Positions 7,629-46,897 of a stretch of DNA of 64,000 bases are shown one piece after another. This stretch comes from an uncultured Actinomycetota bacterium. GTDB taxonomy: Bacteria > Actinomycetota > Actinomycetes > JAFAQI01. Each line of letters starts with the position of its first letter. Position 1 is the first letter of the stretch. The DNA lies in contig CAWBLI010000005.1 in assembly GCA_963789615.1 (NCBI GenBank), forward strand, positions 1,454,309-1,518,308. The letters are read 5' to 3'. A program made the position numbers and the translations under genes. Below the pieces are notes generated by a model. It saw only the letters and a program-made list of their open reading frames with translations, ran no database searches and was not told the DNA's origin.

Positions 7629-8921
7629 GACGCGAGCCCGGCGTCGCGGAACGCGTCGAGCGACGCCCGGATCGTGGCGGTCGGGCGGGCCACCGGCTCG
7701 ACGGCGTCCAGCGTCTTGAGCCCGTCACCGGTGTTGAGGATGACCGTCTCGGCGTCCGGGTCGAGCTGACCCGAGGCGAGCAGCTTGCGCAGCGTCGCCA
7801 CCGTCACGCCGCCCGCCGTCTCACCGAAGACGCCGGTCGTCTGGGCGAGCAGCCGGATCCCGTCGACGACCTCGTCGTCGGTGACGTCCGCAATCGCCCC
7901 ACCGGTACGACGGACGACGTCGAGCGCGTAGGGCCCGTCGGCCGGGTTGCCGATCCCGAGCGACTTGACGATCCCGCTCGGGCGCACCGGCTGGACGACG
8001 TCCTGCCCGGCCTGGAAGGCCGCCGACACCGGCGAGCAGCCGGCCGACTGCGCCCCGAAGACGGCGTACGGCGTGTCCTCGACCAGACCCAGCTTGGCGA
8101 GCTCGCGCCACGCCTTGTCGACCTTGGTGAGCAGCGATCCCGGACGCGATCGGGACGACGACCTGCTGCGGCAGCCGCCAGCCGAGCTGTTCGGCCACCT
8201 CGTAGCCCACCGTCTTCGAGCCCTCGGCGTAGAAGGGGCGGACGTTGACGTTGACGAAGGCCCACGGCAGCTCGCCGGCGACCTCGGCGCAGAGCCGGTT
8301 GACGTCGTCGTAGGAGCCCTCGACGGCGATCAGGGTCCCGCCGTACACCGCGGTCGTGATCACCTTGCCGGCCTCGAGGTCGTGCGGGATGAACACCACC
8401 GAGCGCATCCCGGACCGGGCACAGGCGGCCGCCACCGCGTTCGCGAGGTTGCCGGTCGACGCCGCCGACAGCACCGCGAAGCCCATCGCCTTGGCCGCCG
8501 AGGCAGCGACCGCCACGACCCGGTCCTTGAACGAGTGCGTGGGGTTCCCGCTGTCGTCCTTCACCCACAACGAACGCATCCCGAGCTCGGCGGCGAGCTT
8601 CTCTGCCGGCACCAGGCGCGTCATGCCGACCTGGAGGTCGACCAGCGGCGCGGCCGGCAGCAGTCCGCCGTACCGCCACATGGTGCGAGGGCCGGCTTCG
8701 ATCGAGGCGCGCGTGACCAGGCGCATCGCGGCCTCGTCGTAGCTGATCTCGAGCGGACCGAAGCACATCTCGCAGACGTGGGACGGGCCGAGGTCGTAGG
8801 TCGCGCCGCACTCGCGGCAGGCCAGGCCGGCCGCGGAGCCGAACCCGGACGTGGAGGGTCGATCGATCAACGAAGTCATGACACCAGAGCCTTCATCATC
8901 TTTCCCGCGGGCTGGGCCCAC
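7625..8921 (-). pseudogene. thrC: threonine synthase with N-terminal zinc ribbon; +1 frameshift at about 8141-8146
   Basis: ORF 7821-8921 carries CRECGATYDLGPSHVCEMC plus PLP lysine region SFKDR and reads to ...PIASG. ORF 7625-8029 carries the ThrC C-terminus QDVVQPVRPSGIVKSLGIGNPADG. The junction tccgggatcgctgctcacc has one extra base. Confidence 0.7.
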
Positions 8922-15127: not shown

Positions 15128-16725
15128 GTGGGGGTGGAATCCCGATCGGTCACGCGCCGCGAGGCACTCGGGATGCTCGTCGGCGCTGCTGCCGCCACCA
15201 CCCTGGCCGGATGCTCGTCGGGATCGTCCGCGACCCGGCTCGGCTCAGTCCACTGGCTCACCCGTCCGGTCCAGCGCACGCCCGGCGTCGCCGTCCGCCG
15301 CCGACTGGCGGAGCCTGGCCGGCCAGCTTCACGGCACGCTGGTCCGCCGAGGCCGGACCGGGTACGACGCAGCCCGGCTGCTGTTCAACCGCCGCTTCGA
15401 CGGCGAGCACCCGGCGGCCGTCGTACGGGTCGCGGACGCCGACGACGTGGCGACCGGGCTCGCCTTCGCCCACCGGTTCGCGCTGCCGCTGCACCTCCGC
15501 TCCGGCGGCCACTCCTACCTCGGCGCCTCGTCCGGACCCGGGCTGGTGCTGGACCTGCGGTCACTCAACGGCCTCCGAGTCGACGCCGCGGCCGGCACCG
15601 CGACGCTGGGCGCCGGGATCGCCCTGGTCGACGCGTACGACGGACTGGCGGCGCACGGTGCGGCGATCCCGGCCGGCTCGTGTCCCGACCGTCGGCCTGT
15701 CCGGCCTGACCCTGGGCGGCGGGATCGGTGTCGTCACCCGGCAGTACGGCCTGACCAGCGACCGGCTGGTCGGAGCCACCGTCGTGACCGCGACCGGCGA
15801 GACCATCACCGCCGACGCCGCGCACCACTCCGACCTGCTCTGGGCGTTGCGCGGCGGCGGGGGCAGCTTCGGCGTCGTCACGTCGTTGCGGCTGCAGACC
15901 CATCCGACGCCGTCGCTGGCCCACGCCTATCTGGTCTGGCCCTGGTCGGCGGCGGCCGAGGTGTTGGCCGCCTGGCAGCAGCAGGCGCCGCGGGCGCCGC
16001 GGGCGATGTGGTCGACCTGTCACCTGTTGGCGCCGGCGACCCGGCCGGCGCCGCCGACCGTCGTAGTCGCCGCGGTGTACGTCGGCAGCACGGCCGGGCT
16101 GAGCGAGCAGGTCGGGCGGCTGACCCAGGCGATCTCGACCCCGCCGACCACGAACTTCGTGGCGTCGGAGAGCTATCTCGACACCATGTTGCTGGAGGCC
16201 GGCTGCTCGAGCATCTCCGAGACGGCCTGCCACGTCGCCGCCGAGACACCGGGCGGGACGTTGCCGCGCGACGCGTTCGTCGCGGGGTCGGACTTCTTCA
16301 CCCGGCAGATCGGCACGGCCGGGATCGCGCGGCTGGTCCGCGCGGTCGAGACGCGGGCGGCAGACCGCCGGCTCGGTGCCGGCGGTGCGTCGTTCGACGC
16401 GCTCGGCGGGGCCGTCGACGACCTGGCTGCGGACGCATCGGCGTACGTGCATCGGGGTGCGTTGTTCGACGCGCAGTACACCGCGTCGTGGGCGGGGACG
16501 CCGGGCAACGGGCCGCTCCCGCGCAACCAGGCTTCACTGGCCTCGATTCGAGCAGCCGCAACGGATTTCGCGTCCGGCCAGTCGTATCAGAACTACCCTG
16601 ACGCCACCCTGCGCGATCCGCAGCAGGCGTACTACGGGGCCAACCTGAGCCGGCTGGTCGAGGTACGACGGACCTACGACCCCACGAGCGTTTTCACCCA
16701 GCCCCAGGGCGTCCCGCTGACCTGA
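15128..16725 (+). pseudogene. Tat-secreted FAD-linked oxidase (BBE/PCMH-type FAD-binding) with two homopolymer frameshifts
   Basis: Tat signal SRSVTRREALGMLVGAAAATTLAGCSS (frame 2). FAD domain ...VRVADADDVATGLAFAHRFALPLHLRSGGHSYLG (frame 0). BBE-like C-terminus ...GLSGLTLGGGIGVVTRQYGL...YQNYPD (frame 1). Junctions lie at about 15250-15300 and 15684, the latter an extra C in tgtcccgacc. Confidence 0.65.
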
Positions 16726-26339: not shown

Positions 26340-27090
26340 TCAGCGTCCCTGGTTCTTCACCGCGTCGATCGCGTCGGCTGCCGCCGCCGGGTCAAGGTAG
26401 GTCCCACCCTGGCTCACCGGACGTAGGTCGCCGTCGAGGTCGTAGCGCAGCGGGATCCCGGTCGGGATGTTGAGGCCCACGATGGTGTCCTCGTCGATGC
26501 CGTCGAGGTGTTTGACGAGCGCCCGCAGCGAGTTGCCGTGAGCGACGACGAGGACGGTCGCGCCGGAGCGCAGGTCCGGAACGATCGCGTCGTACCAGTA
26601 GGGCAGCAGCCGCTCGACCACGTCGGCGAGGCACTCGGTGCGGGGGACGATCTCGGGGGCTAGGGCCGCGTAACGCGCGTCGCGGGCTTGGGAGTACTGC
26701 GAGTCGTCGGCGATCGGCGGCGGCGGGGTGTCGTAGGAGCGACGCCAGGCCATGAACTGCTCGTCGCCGTACTGCTCGCGGATCGCGGCCTTGTCCTTGC
26801 CCTGCAGGTCGCCGTAGTGCCGCTCGTTGAGGCGCCAGGACCGGCGTACCGGGATCCAGTGCCGGTCCGCGACCGTCGAGCGCCGGTTGCGCCGTGTCGA
26901 TCGCCCGGCGCAGCAGCGAGGTGTGGAGCAGGTCAGGCAGCAGCGCGTGCTCGGCGAGCAGCTCGCCGGCCCGGCGCGCCTCAGCCCGGCCGGTGTCGGT
27001 GAGGCCGACGTCGACCCAGCCGGTGAACTGGTTGGTGGCGTTCCACTCGCTCTGGCCATGGCGCAGCAGCAACAACGTGCCGACGGTCAT
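26340..27090 (-). pseudogene. gpmA: 2,3-bisphosphoglycerate-dependent phosphoglycerate mutase; frameshift at about 26865
   Basis: N-terminus [23 protein letters not shown] (catalytic RHG) is in ORF 26392-27090. Remainder ...[23 protein letters not shown]...[13 protein letters not shown] is in ORF 26340-27059. Junction is the gacggtcg G-run. Confidence 0.8.
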
Positions 27091-27113
27091 GCCTCGACAT
27101 CCTGCCGGTCCGA

Positions 27114-37566: not shown

Positions 37567-38118
37567 TCAGCTGGATGCGCTGGTGGTGCGGACCGACGCG
37601 GTGACCTTCTTGGCCGGGGTACGACGAGCGGTGGCCTTCTTCGCCGTGGGGCGCTTGGCCGTGGTCTTCTTGGCGCTCGTGCGCTTCGCCGTGGTCTTCT
37701 TCGCCGGCGTCGCGGGCTTGCGGTCGTGCGTGCCGAAGGACTTGCCCGGCTTCTCGCCGCGCAGGCCGGCGACAACCTTGGCGCCGCGGGTCGCGAAGTC
37801 GTCGTACGTGCTGGACGCCTGCTTGCGGAAGTCCTCGGCCTGCTTGCGCAGCTCAACCGGCAGCGACTGGGCGCGCGACGGGAAGTCCTCGGCCTGCTTG
37901 CGCAGCACCTTGACCTGCTTGCGAAGCTCGACCGGCAGCGTCTGGGCGCGCGACGGAAGCTCCTCGGCCTGCTTGCGCAGCTCCTTCACCTGCTCCGGGA
38001 ACGACGCGACGACCTCGCGGTAGCGCTCCACGGCCAGGTCACCGGCGCCGGCAAGGGCGTACAGGGGCTTGGGGTCGAAGACGGTGATGGCGGGGATGGT
38101 GGTGCGGACGGTAGGCAT
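37567..38118 (-). CDS. heparin-binding hemagglutinin-like (HbhA family) protein with Lys/Ala-rich C-terminal repeats
   Basis: N-terminal TM-like helix, coiled-coil ELRKQAE.../ELRKQAEDFRKQA, and C-terminal KKTTAKRTSAKKTTAKRPTAKKATARRTPAKK repeats as in mycobacterial HBHA. Confidence 0.6.
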   Translation of the reverse strand: MPTVRTTIPAITVFDPKPLYALAGAGDLAVERYREVVASFPEQVKELRKQAEELPSRAQTLPVELRKQVKVLRKQAEDFPSRAQSLPVELRKQAEDFRKQASSTYDDFATRGAKVVAGLRGEKPGKSFGTHDRKPATPAKKTTAKRTSAKKTTAKRPTAKKATARRTPAKKVTASVRTTSASS

Positions 38119-38219
38119 GTAACGGACCTCCTGGGACCGGGGATGTGTCGCCGATCGCGACACAACGACTGTGCGGGTGGAGCAGCGAACGGACGGCGCC
38201 CGTTCACACGTCCCCACCG

Positions 38220-39782: not shown

Positions 39783-40359
39783 TCAGCTGCTCTCGGTGGG
39801 CAACAGGTCAGCGACGTCGGCGGTGCCGTCCTTGTAGCGGCGTCCGATCTCGGCCGTGCACGCGTCCATCACGTGCTGGACCAGGCGGCGCTTGGCCGAC
39901 AGGTCGACCTCCTCGTGCTGGAGCAGGTCGAGCACTCGGTTGAGGTCGGCATCGTCGTGTTGCGAGGGATCCGAGAGGTCGACGTCGGCGAGCATCGACT
40001 CGAGGTAGCGACGGTGCTCCTCGGACTCGGTCGGCTCGACGGTGACGTGGCGGCCCGAGGCCGTGGGGGCCGACCGGCGGCCCATCGGCGAGGATCGTAG
40101 TGAGCGAGTCGACGAGGGAGTTCGAGCCATCGCCCACGCGGCGGGCGAGCTCGGCGCGCAGGATGTCCATCCGGCCTTGCAGCAGCCGCCGCAGGTAGGA
40201 CAGGTTGGTCTCCTCCTGCTCGGCTTCGGAGCGCATCCGGCGGACGTCCTCGAGCGGGCGCTCGGTGAGGTCGTCCAGGTATCCCTCGGCCAGGATGTGG
40301 TCGATTCGGCGGTTCCCCGGGTTCGTCATGCGAGCGGCCTCCGGCTCTGTCGTCGTCAC
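39783..40359 (-). pseudogene. RsiG-like c-di-GMP-binding anti-sigma factor homolog; frameshift at about 40080-40100
   Basis: Two exact copies of the RsiG motif E-x3-S-x2-R-x3-Q-x3-D: ETNLSYLRRLLQGRMD in the N-terminal helix and EVDLSAKRRLVQHVMD in the C-terminal helix. The halves are in different frames. Confidence 0.5.
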
Positions 40360-40491
40360 CGCGCCATGGTGTCACGACACGCCGCGAACATGTCCGTGCA
40401 GATTGGCCCGAATGGCTCAACGTCCGCAAGAAATGTGCCGAAGAGATGGAAGCAGCCAGCACCAGCCCGCGCCGTCAGGAGGTCGTCGTTC

Positions 40492-43400
40492 ATGCTCAAA
40501 GGCGACCTGGCCACCACACCGCTCGCTCCGCTGCTCCTAGATCTCGCCGATGACAGTGCCACCGGGTGTCTGGTCATCGTCGAGGACAGCGGCGACGGTG
40601 ACGAGGCGCAGCTCTACCTCAAGCAGGGTCTGGTCTACGCCGTACAGGTCCCAGGACGGCGCCCCCAGCTCGGCTCGAAGCTCGTCTCCTCCGGCGCCCT
40701 AGCGCCCGAGGCGCTCGCCGATGCGCTCGAAGCGCAGCGGACCGAGCTGCAGGGCTGGCGCCTCGGCGAGCTGCTGGTCCACCTCGGGTACGTCGAACAG
40801 TCCGTCGTCGAGGCGTTCGTCCGCGAACAGGTCGACGACGCGATGTGGGACCTGATGCGCTGGCACAACGGCCGGTGGAGGTTCCGCAAGAACACGAAGA
40901 CCCGCGAGGACGTCGCCTCTCCGATGGAGGTCGTCGCCCTGCTGTCGAAGCTGCGGGAACGCGGCTACGAGTGGGAGACCATCTCCGCGGTCGTCCACGG
41001 GCCGGCCGCGGTGCCGGTGCTCTCGACGCGCGGCAACGCTGACGCCGAGATGACCCTCGACCCCGACGCCTGGTCGATGCTGTGCAAGATCGACGGCGAG
41101 CGCTCGGTCGCCGACCTGGCCCGCGATTGCGGTTACACGCTTGTTCGAGGCCGGTCACGTCATCGTGAGCCTGGTCCACGCCGGCTTGGTCGACATCGAG
41201 GAAGACGTCGACGTCGCCGGAGGGTGCGGCGTACGGCGCCAGCACGCTGTCGGCTGCCTGGCGCGACAACGCCGAGTCGGCGGAGACCGGTCGAGGTTGG
41301 TACGACGAGCCACAACGGCAACGGTCACGGCGAGCTCGGCGCAAGCGACGACGCCGAAGGCGACGCGCTCTCCCGGCTGGCCCGGCTCGTCACGGAGGTG
41401 GCGGGCGGGCCCGCAGTCTACCGAAGCGGCAGAGGCCGAACCGCTGGCAACCCAGCGAGGTTCTGGACGGTCCGGACTGGCACTCGATGAGCGAGACGGA
41501 CGACTCCTTCGCCGTTGCGCTGGCTCGGGTTTCATCAGCTCTGACCGAGGTACTGGGCCCCGCCAACGGCGAGAGCGATCCCTTCGACGTACCTGGCAAC
41601 ACTTCGCCTCCGCCGGCGTGAGTCCGAGCCCGACCCCGAGTGGGACCGACGCGCGAAGCTTCGCTCGGCGGCAGCCGCCGAGCTGGCGGCCGCACATGCG
41701 CTGGCCGAAGCGCTTCGGCCGCAGGACGAGGGCGAGCAGGAGCAGGCCGAGGCCGAAGGCGACGTCATCCACCTGGCTCCGAGCGAGGCCGAGCTCGCCG
41801 AGCGGAGGCGGCCGCTGAAGAGCAGGCTCGTCTTGAGGCCGAAGCGGAGGCTCGGCTGGAGGCCGAAGCGGAAGCTGCACGCCTCGAAGCGGAAGCAGAA
41901 GCTGCCCGGCTCGAAGCCGAAGCGGAAGCTGCACGTCTCGCCGCCGACGAAGAAGCCGCCCGGCTCGAAGCCGAAGCGGAAGCTGCACGGCTCGAAGCCG
42001 AAGGAGAGGCCGCCAGGCTCGCAGCCGAGGCAGAAGCTGCGCGGCTGGAGGCCGAAGCGGAGGCTGCACGCCTCGCCGCCGAAGACGAAGCCGCCCGGCT
42101 CGAAGCCGAAGCGGAAGCTGCACGCGTCGCCGCCGAAGCCGAGGAGAAGGCCCGGCTCGAGGCCGAAGCCGAGGCCGCACGCGTCGCCGCCGAAGCCGAA
42201 GAGAGGCCGCTCAGGCGGAAGCCGAAGCGGAGGCTGCACGCTCGCCGCCGAAGAAGAGGCCGCACGGCTCGCCGCCGAAGAGGAAGCGCACGGCTCGAAG
42301 CCGAAGAAGAGGCCGCCCGGCTCGCCGCTGAGGAAGAAGCCGCCCGGCTCGAAGCCGAAGCCGAAGCCGCAGGCTGGCTGCCGAGGAAGAAGCCGCCCGG
42401 CTCGCCGCGGACGAAGAAGCCGCCCGGCTCGCCGCTGAGGAAGAGGCAGCACGGCTGGCCGCTGAGGAGCAGGCACAGCTCGAGGCCGAGGCCGAAGCCG
42501 CCCGTGTCGCGGCAGAGGAGCAGGCCCAACTCGAAGCCGAAGCCGAAGCCGCACGCCTGGCCGCCGAGGAAGCGGCTCGCCTCGAAGCAGAGGCCGCTCA
42601 GTTGGCCGCAGACGAGCAAGCACGGCTCGACGCCGAAGCTGAGGCCGCGCGCCTCGAGGCCGAGGCCGAGGCTGAAGCCGAAGCCGCACGCCTGGCCGCG
42701 GAAGAGCAGGCACACCTCGAGGCCGAGGCCGAGGCCGCACGCCTGGCCGAAGCGAGGAGCAGGCACGCCTCGAGGCCGAGGCCGAAGCCGCACGGGCGGC
42801 TGCCGACGAGGCAAGCTCGGGTCGAGGCCGAAGCGGAAGCCGCACGCCTTGCCACCGAAGCTCAAGAGGAGGCCGCTCGCCTTGCCTCCGAGGAGGAGGC
42901 TGCTCGCCTTGCCGTCGAGGAGGCCGAGGCTCGCCTCGCCGCCGAGGAGCAGGCCCGACTTGTCGCGGAGGCCGAGGCGGCGCAACTCGCCGCTGAGGCG
43001 GACACGGCTCGGACGCCGTCGAGGAAGCCGAAGCTCGTCAGCTCGCCGAGCGGGAGTTCGCCCAGCTCGCAGCGGACGACACTCCCTATGTGCAGGCGCC
43101 GGCTGCCGGGTTCAGCGGGGCCGATGAAGAGGCCGCTCGCCTCGCAGACGAGGCGCAGATCGCCCAGCTCGCCGAGATCGCGCTCGACAGAGTGAGTCGG
43201 ACTTCAGCGCCGCGCAAGCAGCCGCCCTGCTGGTCGAGCTGTCCGCGGAACCAGTGACGGGCTACATGCCTCAGTCATCGTCGAATGACGATTACATGAC
43301 GCCTCGCGATGACGACGACGAGGACGACGACATCTATCCCAGACAGCAGGGCGGCGAGAACAAAGCGGATACCGCGGCCCTGTTGCGCGAGCTTTCGTCG

Positions 43401-43526
43401 CTAGGCACCGAGGAGAACAACGGGGACGCACCAGGTCCGCCGACTCCGCCGCGGCCCCAGCAGCAACGCCCCAACGCCGCGAACGACAAGAAGCAGCGCA
43501 AGAAGATCGGCCTCTTCGGCCTGTAG
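40492..43526 (+). pseudogene. DUF4388 (PatA-like N-domain) protein with giant Ala/Glu-rich coiled-coil repeat region and acidic/basic C-terminal tail; multiply frameshifted
   Basis: MLKGDLATTPLAPLLLDLADDSATGCLVIV...WDLMRWHNGRWRF is the DUF4388 domain. More than 40 copies of ARLEAEAEA follow. C-terminus DDDDEDDDIYPRQQ...KKQRKKIGLFGL. The reading frame changes at least 4 times (41148, about 42200, about 42780, about 43200). Confidence 0.5.
41820..43050 (+). repeat. 27-bp tandem repeat (about 45 units) encoding (A-R-L-E-A-E-A-E-A)n
   Basis: Unit consensus gaagccgaagcggaagctgcacgcctc with synonymous and conservative variation. Internal to the DUF4388 protein. Confidence 0.8.
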
Positions 43527-43613: not shown

Positions 43614-44525
43614 CTAGGCGTCGACGACTCGTTCGGCTTTGAGGGCCATGCCGGCGACGTTCAGCAACGCGTCGTCCGGGGTCTGACGCTTCACCACAGC
43701 CAGCGCGACCGGGCCGAGCTCGGTGTGCTGCACCGCCGTACCGAGGAAGCCCACCTGCTTGCCATCGAGCTCGATCGGTGTCTGCGGCGGCGGCAGCTCG
43801 TCAGACGTCCCGTCGAGATGACCGAGGATCAACCGACGCGGCGGCCGGCCCAGATTGTGAACGCGCGCAACGGTTTCCTGGCCCCGATAACACCCCTTGT
43901 TCAGATGTACGGCGTGGCCGATCCAGCCGACCTCGTGCGGAATCGTCCGATGGTCGGTCTCGAACCCGAGCCGCGGCCGATGCCCCGCCACCCGCACCGC
44001 CTCGAACGCGTCGTGACCGACGAGCGGCAGGTCGATCCCGTCGACCCGGTCGCCCAGCTCGGCGCGCGGGACGTAGCAGTCCTGGACCGAGCCTTCGGTC
44101 ACCACGGAGAGGATGGCGACGGACTCGGTCTCGTCGCTCACCTCGACCCGCAGCATGAACCGCATCGAGTCGAGGTACGACGTGAGCGCCGGCGCCGTCC
44201 CTGGCTCGACCCCGATCCATGTCGCCTCGCCGTCGTCGACGATCGCGAGGTGGTGCTCGACGTGTCCGTGCGGCGACAGGATCAGCGCCTCGATCGGCGC
44301 CTCCGGCGCCAGCGACTCGAGATGCTGCGACGTGAGCGAATGCAGCCAGGACAACCGGTCCGGCCCGCTGACCCGTACGACGCCACGATGTGACCGGTCG
44401 ACGACGCCTCCCGTCGTCAGCACCGCACGCTGCTCGCCGAACGGATCGCCGTAGTGCCCGGCGACGCCCGCATCGACACCACGGCCAGGCGCAGCGCCGT
44501 GCCGTTGCGATGGGAGCGTGCTCAC
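43614..44525 (-). CDS. ygfZ: folate-binding YgfZ-family protein (GcvT-like, Fe-S cluster repair/tRNA modification)
   Basis: GcvT-like fold and the conserved C-terminal region ...LNKGCYRGQETVARVHNLGRPPRRL (KGCYxGQE motif). Confidence 0.8.
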   Translation of the reverse strand: MSTLPSQRHGAAPGRGVDAGVAGHYGDPFGEQRAVLTTGGVVDRSHRGVVRVSGPDRLSWLHSLTSQHLESLAPEAPIEALILSPHGHVEHHLAIVDDGEATWIGVEPGTAPALTSYLDSMRFMLRVEVSDETESVAILSVVTEGSVQDCYVPRAELGDRVDGIDLPLVGHDAFEAVRVAGHRPRLGFETDHRTIPHEVGWIGHAVHLNKGCYRGQETVARVHNLGRPPRRLILGHLDGTSDELPPPQTPIELDGKQVGFLGTAVQHTELGPVALAVVKRQTPDDALLNVAGMALKAERVVDA

Positions 44526-46897
44526 CGGTCCATGCTAGGCGCCTCGTCGCTCCAGGCCACGCTCGCCGACACGGCGTCGTACCGCTCCAAACCCGCCCGG
44601 GGCGGCGGGACCGGATCTGAAGCCGTGGCCCGCGTCGCCGCCGGCAGTCGGAACGCGAACGTCGAGCCGGACCCGGGCGTCGATGTAACGGTGACATCGC
44701 CGCCCATCCCGCGGGCCAGCCGGCGACTGATGTAGAGCCCGAGCCCGGTGCCGGTCTGGGTCTGCGTCGCCGCCAGCCGCTCGAACCGCGCGAAGATCCG
44801 CTCCTGGTCCTCGACCGGGATGCCGGGGCCGTGGTCAGTGACGGCTACCACCACGTGATCGCCGTCGATATCCACCGCGATGTCGACCGGCTCGCAGTCC
44901 GGCGAGTACTTCACAGCGTTCGCGACCAGGTTCGACAGCACCCGCTCGATCCAGACCGCCGAGCCCTCGACGTCGCAGCACCCCGGCGGCGCGAACAACC
45001 GCACCCGCTGGGTCGCCTGCACCGACCGTACGACGTCGACCACCCGGCCCGCGATTGCGAAAACATCGACGACCGCCGGGGTCTCGCCGCCCCGGCTCTC
45101 GACCCGCGAGGACTCCAGGATGTTCAGCACCAGCGACTCGAGCCGTTGCGACTCGCGCAGGATGCTCTGCGCAGCGGTACGACGCTGGTCCTCGCTGAGC
45201 CGGTCGCCGCGGGTGAGCAGCGTCATCGCCCAGCCCTTGATCGGCACCAGCGGCGTCCGCAGCTCGTGCGAGACGACGGCGACGAAGTCGTCCTTGAGCA
45301 GCTCGAGCTCGCGGGCCTGCGTCACGTTACGGGCGATCACGACGAGCGAGGCGCCGCGTCCGTCACGGGCCGGCACCTGGCTGTAGGAGCACGACAGCCA
45401 GACCAGGCTGCCGTCGGCGGCCGTGACCTGCACCTCGACCGGCAGCACCCGGTCCTCGGGCTGCTCGTCCCACCCGGCGATCCGGACGACCGCTCCCGAG
45501 GAATCCCGCGGGTCCAGCGGCTCGAGGCCGACGTTGCCGACCAGGTCGGTCCCGGCGTACCCCGTCATCGCGGCCATTGCCGGGTTCCAGGACTGCACCG
45601 TGCCGTCGGCGTCGATCGTGAAGATCCCGTCGCCGGTGTGGTCGACGATGTCGGCCAGCGTGCGGCGCTGCGCCTCGATCGCGCGCACCAGGTCGACTCG
45701 CTGCAGGAAGCCGGCCAGCTCGCGGGCGAGCGCGCCGGCCACCGCCACGCCGGACTCGAACCCCTCGATGCCGCTGTGGTCGTGGAGCAGCAGGACGCCG
45801 AGGACGCGGTCGGCGGACACCAGCGGCGCCGCGAGCACCCGCACCCGCAGGCTCCGGGCACGCGTCGTCGGCAGCTCGGGCGGGTCGTCGAGCAGGACCG
45901 GGGCTATCAGCGTGGTGGCGAGCCGCTCGGCGAGCGGGTGCGGCCCGTCGCTGCGGCTGTAGACGCCGGCCGAGGTGCACCGGTGCACCTGCGGCAGCTC
46001 GTCGGGATCGAGCAGGACCAGCTCCGCGATCTCGGCCCCGAAGCCGGTGCAGGCGGCCGCCAGGGTCTCCGGCAGCACCTCACGGACGTCGTGCGACACG
46101 ACGAGATGGTGGGTGGCCTTGTGCAGACCGTCGAGCCGGCGGCGGTCAGCCCGCAGCGACGCCTCGGCGCGACCGGCGGCCCACAGCACGACGAGCAGCG
46201 CCATCGCCAGGGTGACGGTCCACGGCACCCACAGGTACGCCGCCGTGAGCAGCACGCCGACGACCGAGCTGGCGGCCAGGCTTCCGAGCCGGCCGAGCAG
46301 CACCGACCACAGAACGCGCTCGCTGTCGCGGGCGGAGTCGTCCACCCCGGTGACCCAGAGGATCCCGATCACGAGCAGCTGGTCGACGAGCCACACCGAC
46401 AGCAACGCGACGAGCAGGAGCAGCACCGAGGAGGTGCTGGCGATCGGCTGGCCGGAGCCACCGCTGATGATGAGGACGCCGACGCTCACCGATGCGACCC
46501 GCTGCGCGACGGTCAGCGCCCCGCGGACCACGCCGTCGCGCCGAATGATCCCGGCGACACCGACCCCGACGGCGACAACGACGACGGTGTCGGTACCCGT
46601 CGTACACAGAAGCAGTGGGGCGAAGAGCGACTCGACCAGGGTCAGGCCGCCGATCGCCTCGTGGCGGACGTACCGGATCTGCAGCGTCTCGGCCAACGCG
46701 ATCATCGCCGCGAAGATGATGAGGTACGCCGGGCCCAGCCGGTCGGGGCCGTCGACGGACGCCGCGAACGTGGCAAGGGTCGCCGCCGCCGCACCGACAC
46801 CGACGACGTACGCCAGCATCCGCGGTACCGCAGCAGCCGCTTGCCGGCTGTTCCTCTGTCGGGTGGCCGACCACGACAACGCCATGTCACCCCTCAC
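44522..46897 (-). CDS. multidomain sensor histidine kinase (membrane domain, GAF, PAS, HisKA, HATPase)
   Basis: About 9 TM helices. PAS region GDGIFTIDADGTVQSWNPAMAAMTGY. H-box VVSHELRTPL. N, G1 and G2 boxes (NLVANAVKYS, DHGPGI, GTGLGLYI). Confidence 0.85.
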   Translation of the reverse strand: MRGDMALSWSATRQRNSRQAAAAVPRMLAYVVGVGAAAATLATFAASVDGPDRLGPAYLIIFAAMIALAETLQIRYVRHEAIGGLTLVESLFAPLLLCTTGTDTVVVVAVGVGVAGIIRRDGVVRGALTVAQRVASVSVGVLIISGGSGQPIASTSSVLLLLVALLSVWLVDQLLVIGILWVTGVDDSARDSERVLWSVLLGRLGSLAASSVVGVLLTAAYLWVPWTVTLAMALLVVLWAAGRAEASLRADRRRLDGLHKATHHLVVSHDVREVLPETLAAACTGFGAEIAELVLLDPDELPQVHRCTSAGVYSRSDGPHPLAERLATTLIAPVLLDDPPELPTTRARSLRVRVLAAPLVSADRVLGVLLLHDHSGIEGFESGVAVAGALARELAGFLQRVDLVRAIEAQRRTLADIVDHTGDGIFTIDADGTVQSWNPAMAAMTGYAGTDLVGNVGLEPLDPRDSSGAVVRIAGWDEQPEDRVLPVEVQVTAADGSLVWLSCSYSQVPARDGRGASLVVIARNVTQARELELLKDDFVAVVSHELRTPLVPIKGWAMTLLTRGDRLSEDQRRTAAQSILRESQRLESLVLNILESSRVESRGGETPAVVDVFAIAGRVVDVVRSVQATQRVRLFAPPGCCDVEGSAVWIERVLSNLVANAVKYSPDCEPVDIAVDIDGDHVVVAVTDHGPGIPVEDQERIFARFERLAATQTQTGTGLGLYISRRLARGMGGDVTVTSTPGSGSTFAFRLPAATRATASDPVPPPRAGLERYDAVSASVAWSDEAPSMDR

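Follow-up and report, generated by a model that had tools for sequence, protein, structure and literature searches.

The gene described here lies at 40492–43526 on the forward strand of a 64,000-nucleotide stretch of DNA from an uncultured Actinomycetota bacterium (GenBank GCA_963789615.1, contig CAWBLI010000005.1; hereafter the window). Its product of ~1010 residues has three parts: an N-terminal PATAN (DUF4388) domain with an insert resembling the MshEN motif of cyclic di-GMP (c-di-GMP) receptors, a long acidic spacer that is here largely an Ala/Glu/Arg repeat, and a predominantly disordered C-terminus that carries short conserved helices and a basic tail. The coding region opens with an ATG at 40492, preceded by GGAGG at 40479–40483, and closes with a stop codon at 43524–43526. 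Divergently adjacent lies rsiG, which encodes the anti-sigma factor of WhiG, and a predicted WhiG-type promoter sits between the two genes. The features of the locus are as follows.

40492–41223, forward strand: N-terminal module (residues 1–244), from a PF14332 match and an AlphaFold2 (AF2) model; PATAN/DUF4388 beta-sheet core, alpha-clip insert, long helix and winged-helix-like subdomain; one frameshift near 41140
40666–40830, forward strand: alpha-clip insert (residues 59–113) with an MshEN/GSPII-type tandem 24-residue motif, QLGSKLVSSGALAPEALADALEAQ – RTELQGW – RLGELLVHLGYVEQSVVEAFVREQ
41224–41800, forward strand: acidic linker (approximately residues 245–436), net charge −26, with short conserved helices LSRLARLVTEVA, SFAVALARVSSALTEVLGP and DPEWDRRAKLRSAAAAELA and at least five single-base frameshifts
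41800–43130, forward strand: Ala/Glu/Arg repeat region (approximately residues 437–880), ~42 units, mostly ARL(E/A)AE(A/E)EA, net charge −97, with eight to nine single-base frameshifts
43191–43247, forward strand: first conserved C-terminal helix, SDFSAAQAAALLVELSA, at the start of the intact C-terminal frame; family motif AAxL(V/A)EL(S/N)
43308–43331, forward strand: DDDDEDDD, a polyacidic run within a disordered stretch rich in acidic residues and Pro
43353–43400, forward strand: short helix ENKADTAALLRELSSL(G), invariant and better conserved than any other element beyond the N-domain
43488–43526, forward strand: polybasic-hydrophobic tail KKQRKKIGLFGL (itself 43488–43523) and stop codon
40414–40444, forward strand: predicted WhiG (sigma-28 family)-type promoter, with −35 TCAA at 40417–40420, a 16-nt spacer and −10 GCCGAAGA at 40437–40444
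39783–40359, reverse strand: rsiG, c-di-GMP-dependent anti-sigma factor of WhiG; Pfam PF22802 (RsiG), E = 2.9e-34 across two frames; divergent neighbour
43614–44525, reverse strand: ygfZ-like folate-binding (GCV_T) gene; Pfam PF01571, E = 1.3e-18; downstream neighbour in 45 of 80 related loci (tblastn)

No single open reading frame (ORF) spans 40492–43526, and on three-frame translation the sense hops among all three forward frames. We reconstructed the gene with a frame-aware dynamic programme scored with the amino-acid usage of the PATAN-rsiG family, as we call this gene and its relatives; it placed 15 shifts and returned 1003–1011 residues. The ~13–15 frame breaks fall within ~2 kb, and all are 1-nt insertions or deletions of either sign. 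When the translation is set against homologues, the conserved stretches YGAS..LSAA, LSRLARLVTEVA, SFAVALARVSSAL and DPEW..AAAAELA each appear in a different frame. At least five indels lie within the non-repetitive linker at 41140–41600, as homologue sequences confirm (the linker was matched to P0004, P0022, P0031 and L002). Indels are absent from the 650 nt of the N-domain and from the final 330 nt of the gene, both of which are 75–79% identical to relatives. None of the frame segments contains an in-frame stop, and each reads as conserved family sequence.

The gene is real, conserved and actinobacterial. A genome scan gave 251 relatives, from which 80 loci were kept and examined; they come from Frankiales, Frankiaceae, Acidothermaceae or 'Mycobacteriales' metagenome-assembled genomes (MAGs) and from the complete genome of Acidothermaceae bacterium B102. 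Intact ORFs of 562–1447 aa with the same two ends occur in 37 of the 80. A profile search returned 476 clusters (50% identity) at E ≤ 1e-30; among the 135 best representatives, 69 are full length with both C-terminal motifs and the remainder are truncated. Searching with the N-domain of a distant subfamily yielded 22 matches, one of them named Candidatus Nanopelagicales. Every homologue carries the DUF4388 fusion, and long repeats stand in the intact ORFs of short-read assemblies, so that neither of the two outcomes that would have undone the original prediction (homologues without the fusion, or a repeat inflated by assembly from a much shorter one) came about. This gene is not described in the texts of the RsiG/WhiG papers or in the small literature on DUF4388. 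This PATAN family is unstudied, and it joins a probable c-di-GMP module, a conserved WhiG-type promoter and adjacency to rsiG.

The N-terminal domain is well defined. It matches DUF4388/PATAN (Pfam PF14332) over residues 3–161 (E = 1.3e-17; 64.4 bits against a cut-off of 25; profile positions 1–121 of 122), which upholds the prediction of a ~1000-residue protein whose PatA-like DUF4388 domain is fused to a long Ala/Glu helix. AF2 modeled the N-terminal 244 residues with a mean predicted local distance difference test score (pLDDT) of 93.9 and a predicted template modeling score of 0.88. In this model a beta-sheet core is interrupted by four helices (60–122) and followed by a long helix and a small helical subdomain (191–236). 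The four helices (60–67, 72–84, 91–97 and 103–122) sit between strands 47–52 and 128–133 and form the two inserted helical hairpins of the PATAN alpha-clip, as defined by Makarova et al. 2006 (cited in bioRxiv 10.1101/2021.06.11.447907). For the subdomain at 191–236, Foldseek matched only winged-helix parts of larger proteins (GATOR1/SEA subunits and 2yu3), a placement that follows from the aligned length. Foldseek found no solved structure that covers the whole N-domain.

Cyanobacterial PATAN domains are protein-interaction output domains, localize to the membrane and bind PilB/PilC (bioRxiv 10.1101/2021.06.11.447907). The protein shares the PATAN/DUF4388 domain and its alpha-clip of two helical hairpins with PatA of Anabaena, PixE, PixG and LsiR of Synechocystis, and SgnC of Myxococcus. 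Unlike these, it has no receiver (REC) domain, and so lacks the C-terminal receiver of a PatA-type response regulator; no REC or other Pfam domain was found downstream of the PATAN domain, where the acidic spacer and short motifs stand instead. It also differs in being actinobacterial and in its family's acidic spacer of 130–1141 aa, LLRELSSLG helix, basic tail, WhiG-type promoter and pairing with rsiG.

Within the alpha-clip, several comparisons point to a c-di-GMP-binding fold. The top Protein Data Bank (PDB) match of the insert in Foldseek is MshE of V. cholerae with bound c-di-GMP (5htl_A; 60 columns, root-mean-square deviation 1.4 Å, 33% identity, probability 1.00), and the model reproduces the compact four-helix fold of the 53-residue MshEN unit. 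The insert matches the NCBIfam model NF053729 ('c-di-GMP_motif, MshE-related') over profile positions 1–53 of 53 (38.6 bits, E = 6.9e-10). When the family profile was searched against PDB sequences, residues 52–111 alone matched PilF at 301–358, which is its GSPII-C domain (whole-protein E = 3.8e-8), as well as MshE 5HTL (E = 1.4e-3) and PilB N-termini. As in MshE, the GSPII-B and GSPII-C domains of T. thermophilus PilF and NfrB, two tandem 24-residue motifs, the first of them imperfect, build a four-helix unit with conserved Gly, a Leu cluster and a terminal Gln. The unit here is inserted in the PATAN sheet and does not head an ATPase or a glycosyltransferase.

The insert was compared with the published MshEN motif, RLGxx(L/V/I)(L/V/I)xxG(L/V/I)(L/V/I)xxxxLxxxLxxQ. 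The second motif, RLGELLVHLGYVEQSVVEAFVREQ, fits a relaxed form of it fully (R90 90%, G92 100%, G99 93% and Q113 83% conserved), and the first, QLGSKLVSSGALAPEALADALEAQ, fits save for position 1, which is not among R/K/P/N. Across 150 distinct sequences the key Gly, Leu and Gln positions of the insert are 83–100% conserved, the conserved residues being G61, G92, L60, L64, L70, L75, L79, Q82, R90 and Q113, and Arg57, two residues upstream of motif 1, is 96% conserved. The motifs are separated by seven residues (RTELQGW) and not by the canonical five; seven is also the spacing in PilF GSPII-C, with which the insert aligns without gaps.

Several points weigh against c-di-GMP binding. The NF053729 score exceeds its cut-off of 38 by just 0.6 bits, and motif 1 lacks the stacking Arg, its position 1 being Q (65%), M (14%), D (6%) or L (5%). 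Binding by PilF GSPII-A is lost where Ser replaces the corresponding Arg of motif II, and perfect motifs can still fail to bind in an unfavourable domain context (PMC12002112). PilF GSPII-C, however, carries a Pro at the equivalent place of motif II and yet binds c-di-GMP (PMC12002112). The literature on this Arg thus points both ways, which leaves c-di-GMP binding by the insert plausible, though in our estimate somewhat less likely than not. If it does bind, the PATAN domain, widespread but poorly understood, would gain a possible ligand.

The upstream region ties the gene to the RsiG-WhiG switch. The neighbour at 39783–40359 had been called an RsiG homolog and is one; it is split by one frameshift near 40056–40130, and both of its E-x3-S-x2-R-x3-Q-x3-D motifs are readable, as ETNLSYLRRLLQGRMD and EVDLSAKRRLVQHVMD. 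By tblastn, rsiG is divergently adjacent to the gene in all 80 loci. Alignment of the upstream sequences revealed a nearly invariant GGCT(C/T)AA(C/T)-N14-TGCCGA(A/T/G)G. Searched as GGCTYAAY-N14-TGCCGA, this element occurs exactly once per locus in 75 of 80 loci, always on the coding strand and 40–130 nt ahead of the start; the remainder of these 75 loci (up to 12.7 kb each) has no other match, and the window holds one match (40414–40441) against 0.06 expected.

This element resembles the promoters recognized by WhiG. The published WhiG consensus is a −35 of T(A/C)AA and a −10 of GCCGA(T/A) separated by N16, within 200 bp of the start codon, and the N16 spacing sets these promoters apart from the N15 of flagellar sigma factors (PMC12871210, PMC7005675). 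The window sequence at 40417–40441 agrees with this consensus, including the distance to the start codon. T[AC]AA-N16-GCCGA is present in 62 of the 75 loci, always with N16, against a background of 1% of random pieces and 1 of 75 on the opposite strand. Two details depart from known WhiG targets: the −10 ends in (A/T/G)G(N) where those have TAA, and the −35 takes the longer form GGCTCAAY. The WhiG targets named in the cited texts (whiH, whiI, vnz15005, and pil, flagellar and diguanylate cyclase/phosphodiesterase genes; PMC12871210, PMC7005675) do not include this gene. We considered vnz15005, the third WhiG target in Streptomyces, as a homologue of the gene; it is a membrane protein and not homologous (PMC7005675).

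From the promoter motif and synteny we infer that the gene is transcribed by WhiG. Two observations count against this: a strict sigma-28 consensus (TAAA-N14–17-GCCGATAA, up to two mismatches) occurs in only 1 of 75 loci, which is background level, and a Nanopelagicales-like subfamily has no adjacent rsiG. The architecture together with the regulatory link is nevertheless the part of our reading that we hold to be likely. Among the sigma/anti-sigma switches that c-di-GMP controls in Actinobacteria, RsiG-WhiG is the best understood, and its targets beyond Streptomyces are mostly promoter predictions.

In the two Nanopelagicales-like loci (L081 and L082, 4800–5000) the asparaginase II, XRE and GCV_T neighbours are kept and a BKACE gene stands in place of rsiG. 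A CTCAA-N17-TGCCGA lies ~45 nt upstream of the gene there, and a short acidic linker rich in Pro serves as the spacer. We also examined, as a possible operator, the perfect 12-bp palindrome GTGTCACGACAC (40369–40380, ~10 nt upstream of the rsiG start); it is present in just 2 of 76 upstream sequences (the window and L003) and is thus probably not a conserved operator.

The spacer is the most variable part of the protein. Tandem Repeats Finder detected a 27-bp period with 22 copies at 41862–42462 and more arrays up to 42999. At the protein level the region parses into ~42 units: 26 of exactly 9 aa, 7 of 8 aa and the others irregular. The 9-residue ARLEAEAEA repeat that had been predicted is present, with a count below the ~45 copies proposed, and the description of the helix as perfectly periodic was overstated. 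The 27-bp repeat with many synonymous changes stood up well: the DNA of 11 identical ARLEAEAEA units comprises 9 different 27-mers, at a mean nucleotide identity of 84%. The repeat at 41826–42790 is rich in GAA and GCT codons despite a genome of ~70% G+C, while identical peptide units differ synonymously. This codon use and synonymous variation may reflect selection against repetitiveness at the DNA level.

The repeat consists of 41% A, 29% E, 9% L and 8% R. Nearly every basic residue has an acidic partner, at i+4 in 40 of 42 cases and at i−3 in 37 of 42. In this respect, and in having no hydrophobic seam, it resembles ER/K single alpha-helices, for which a stiff spacer is a plausible role. 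It differs from their charge-balanced E/K/R pattern in its Ala content, its acidic-to-basic ratio of 3.3:1 and its net charge of −97. The region most likely forms a stiff, self-repelling, non-associating single helix, up to ~67 nm long, or an extended polyanion; the imbalance of 139 acidic against 42 basic residues speaks against the helix.

Relatives place this repeat in context. Across 108 full-length relatives the spacer measures 130–1141 aa and is always acidic (−0.05 to −0.28 charge per residue), its composition varies between Ala/Glu-rich, with A+E reaching 56%, and Pro-rich, and its hydrophobic period is not conserved. The Ala/Glu-rich region of the 37 intact ORFs spans 145–660 aa, and in a distant subfamily the spacer is replaced by a Pro/Glu/Val/Ala-rich acidic linker with both ends kept. 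From this variation in length and composition we conclude that the 9-residue repeat is this lineage's own version of a variable acidic spacer.

The C-terminus, by comparison with the spacer, is conserved. AF2, run on the C-terminal alignment, predicts the last 111 residues to be disordered apart from two helices: SDFSAAQAAALLVELSA (residues 3–19 of the C-terminal frame, 43197–43247; pLDDT 82–85) and ENKADTAALLRELSSL (residues 55–70; pLDDT 84). The DTAALLRELSSLG helix and the polybasic-hydrophobic tail are conserved in the family. Within the LLRELSSLG helix, whose core is RELSSL, no variation in R, E, L, S or L is seen across 32 diverse sequences and 66 fragments. A Pro-rich stretch separates this helix from the tail, which varies in the family as KKKKGLFGR, KKKIGLFGL or RRKRRFWGR; the last 14 residues have a median net charge of +5 (108 proteins). 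A polyacidic and then basic C-terminus had been foreseen, and both are present, DDDDEDDD at 43308–43331 and KKQRKKIGLFGL at 43488–43523. The acidic run is not conserved in the family and has no predicted secondary structure (pLDDT 55–61). A search with the C-terminal profile returned only fragments of the same family, and the module was not found in other architectures.

The C-terminal ALLRELSSLG (43362–43391) resembles the start of MshEN motif 2, RLGELLVHLG (40759–40788), and in a mixed alignment of N- and C-termini MAFFT placed 53 of 54 C-terminal fragments on N-domain residue 93. The likeness may be due to chance, or the C-terminal helix may mimic or dock on the alpha-clip.

The architecture, conservation, fold similarity, promoter motif and synteny computed here suggest a mechanism in which c-di-GMP binding, membrane anchoring, a partner of the head and transcription by WhiG would each play a part. 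Given the back-to-back arrangement with rsiG and the WhiG-type promoter, the protein would be made when c-di-GMP falls: RsiG would free WhiG, and WhiG would transcribe the gene. The product would act as a three-part adaptor, with a PATAN head that carries the MshEN-type insert and winged helix, an acidic spacer, and a disordered C-terminus that ends in the basic tail. The tail would serve as a peripheral anchor on the anionic membrane. Both the membrane and the nucleoid would repel the polyanionic spacer, which would keep the head at a distance from this anchor, and the head would engage a partner in a c-di-GMP-sensitive manner. Judging from other PATAN proteins, candidates for this partner are a pilus or secretion motor and the division machinery.

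These functional steps are tentative, with the balance somewhat against them. Taken as a whole, the explanation that the gene encodes a WhiG-regulon effector, probably c-di-GMP-responsive and tail-tethered, and is broken here by assembly errors, stands in our judgement at slightly better than even. A bolder version is somewhat unlikely: that the family is a previously unrecognized c-di-GMP receptor and a conserved RsiG-WhiG output gene in Frankiales, Acidothermales and related actinobacteria, membrane-tethered through a polyanionic stand-off helix and controlling motor or division machinery. Were it true, synthesis of a c-di-GMP receptor would itself be gated by c-di-GMP, through the release of WhiG by RsiG. 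The rsiG pairing in all 80 loci, the promoter and the MshEN-type motif make the protein a concrete candidate effector linking the level of the second messenger to cell organization. The MshEN-type c-di-GMP motif, the invariant LLRELSSLG helix and the conserved WhiG-type promoter are all absent from the original prediction.

Other readings of the spacer and C-terminus have to be weighed against this one. The original prediction likened the repeat to Scy and FilP of Streptomyces, cytoskeletal or scaffold coiled coils; in such a reading it would self-associate into rods or filaments that organize the pole or nucleoid, or serve as a fixed-length ruler. The protein does share with Scy and FilP a long, helix-prone, Ala/Glu-rich repeat in an actinobacterial setting, identical units differ in their DNA by purely synonymous changes, Ala-rich helices can pack as Ala-coils, and the region is long throughout close relatives. 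Scy and FilP, however, are defined by heptad, hendecad and 51-residue hydrophobic periodicity. The hydropathy spectrum of the repeat peaks solely at 9, 4.5 and 3 residues, the harmonics of the repeat itself, and spectral analysis found no period of 3.5–3.67; only 11.5% of residues are bulky and hydrophobic, ~2 of 8 a/d core positions could be filled in the best heptad register, no hydrophobic seam is detectable, and the net charge is −0.22 per residue. Nor is the segment conserved among orthologues: the dominant hydrophobic period in the 37 intact ORFs is 5, 6, 8, 9, 10, 12, 19 or none, spacer length varies ninefold, and distant orthologues retain both ends around a Pro-rich linker. A self-associating coiled coil is quite improbable on these grounds, and a molecular ruler is hard to reconcile with the range of spacer lengths. 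A basic end with aromatic or aliphatic residues is the composition typical of peripheral membrane anchors, such as the membrane-targeting sequence of MinD, and in MinD- and FtsA-type sequences, as here, a basic cluster with Leu/Phe (or Phe/Trp) ends the protein behind a flexible linker. The likeness is one of composition; the tail is shorter. Against membrane anchoring, the tail has merely 2–4 hydrophobic residues, AF2 predicts it to be disordered and not helical, and it could equally bind protein or nucleic acid. The protein might accordingly be a soluble adaptor, in which the C-terminal helix and tail bind protein or nucleic acid and the spacer, a flexible linker with no stand-off role, only tethers two interaction modules. 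This would suit an LLRELSSLG helix that looks like a protein-binding short linear motif, the short and disordered tail and the unconstrained spacer sequence, and actinobacterial nucleoid proteins do bind DNA through basic Lys/Ala tails. It leaves aside that in both subfamilies the protein ends, behind a Pro-rich linker, in a basic cluster combined with Leu/Phe or Phe/Trp, and that the spacer is consistently acidic and not just flexible. We consider the soluble adaptor unlikely.

The frame breaks call for a similar weighing. The original prediction had the repeat collapsing the frame; the breaks are present in the given sequence, but they are scattered 1-nt indels, partly outside the repeat, and not a collapse of 27-bp units. 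They are most likely consensus errors of a long-read assembly in a gene that is intact in nature. Same-strand frame switches in the window, flagged by a codon-usage Viterbi segmentation and followed by a check for split Pfam domains, revealed three ordinary genes each split by a single frameshift: a PALP/threonine-synthase-like gene (7630–8841, reverse strand; one domain across two frames at ~8135), a FAD_binding_4+BBE oxidase gene (15283–16720, forward strand; FAD_binding_4 split at ~15680) and a His_Phos_1 phosphatase/mutase gene (26347–27091, reverse strand; domain split at ~26887). The assembly thus carries indel errors in general. Across the examined loci, net frameshifts in this gene occur in 8 of 12 loci from 'MFD' long-read MAGs and in none of 33 others; the 'MFD' MAGs, which we take to be nanopore-based, have Flye-style contig names and contigs up to 3.2 Mb. 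The density of indels in the gene, ~40 times that of the remaining window and reaching into the non-repetitive linker, does weigh against simple error, and our best guess is strain heterogeneity of a hypervariable region. The same density, with several breaks outside the repeat, could mark a genuine pseudogene inactivated by the organism. Such a gene would hardly keep family sequence in all frame segments with zero stops and indel-free, conserved ends, essential-type genes of the same window show the same kind of error, and the defect follows assembly type across many genomes; a pseudogene is very improbable. Programmed frameshifting or phase variation, which would govern expression from the repeat, has in its favour a repetitive sequence with frame changes. 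Slippage of a 27-bp unit preserves the frame, though, the indels have both signs and none coincides with a slippery site or homopolymer tract, and intact ORFs are the rule in short-read assemblies, all of which makes this extremely improbable.

Assembly error, the reading we prefer for the breaks, appears to be systematic in this gene family: short-read contigs break in the gene and long-read assemblies frameshift it. Short-read contigs typically stop inside the repeat, and ~30 loci run off a contig end. C-terminal mini-ORFs of 46–107 aa are located on contigs up to 3.5 Mb, and at L082 the gene is called as two pieces of 377 and 88 aa. Database homologues are mostly 'partial', and mis-assembly accounts for the predominance in databases of truncated 'partial DUF4388' entries and of orphan C-terminal mini-ORFs. 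A blastx comparison of the window with the ORFs of the related loci was swamped by high-GC shadow ORFs. The codon-usage segmentation flagged additional same-strand switches without a stop at the junction, at ~29441, ~29929, ~49686 and ~49966, which are probably more frameshift errors.

The other neighbours of the gene pair are housekeeping genes: asparaginase II, an XRE regulator, a glyoxalase, an M50 peptidase and a GAF-PAS histidine kinase. The last of these, an intact GAF-PAS-HisKA-HATPase membrane sensor kinase of 791 aa, lies two genes downstream (44522–46897, reverse strand), and its synteny with the pair is not conserved. The reverse strand at 37567–38217 encodes a Lys/Ala-rich protein that contains internal ELRKQAE(D/E)FPSRAQ(S/T)LPVELRKQ repeats and ends in a basic tail of the AKKTTAKR type. 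Its match to Pfam HC2 (histone H1-like) is weak and below the cut-off; in 26 loci it keeps synteny with the rsiG-PATAN pair, and it may be nucleoid-associated or HbhA-like.

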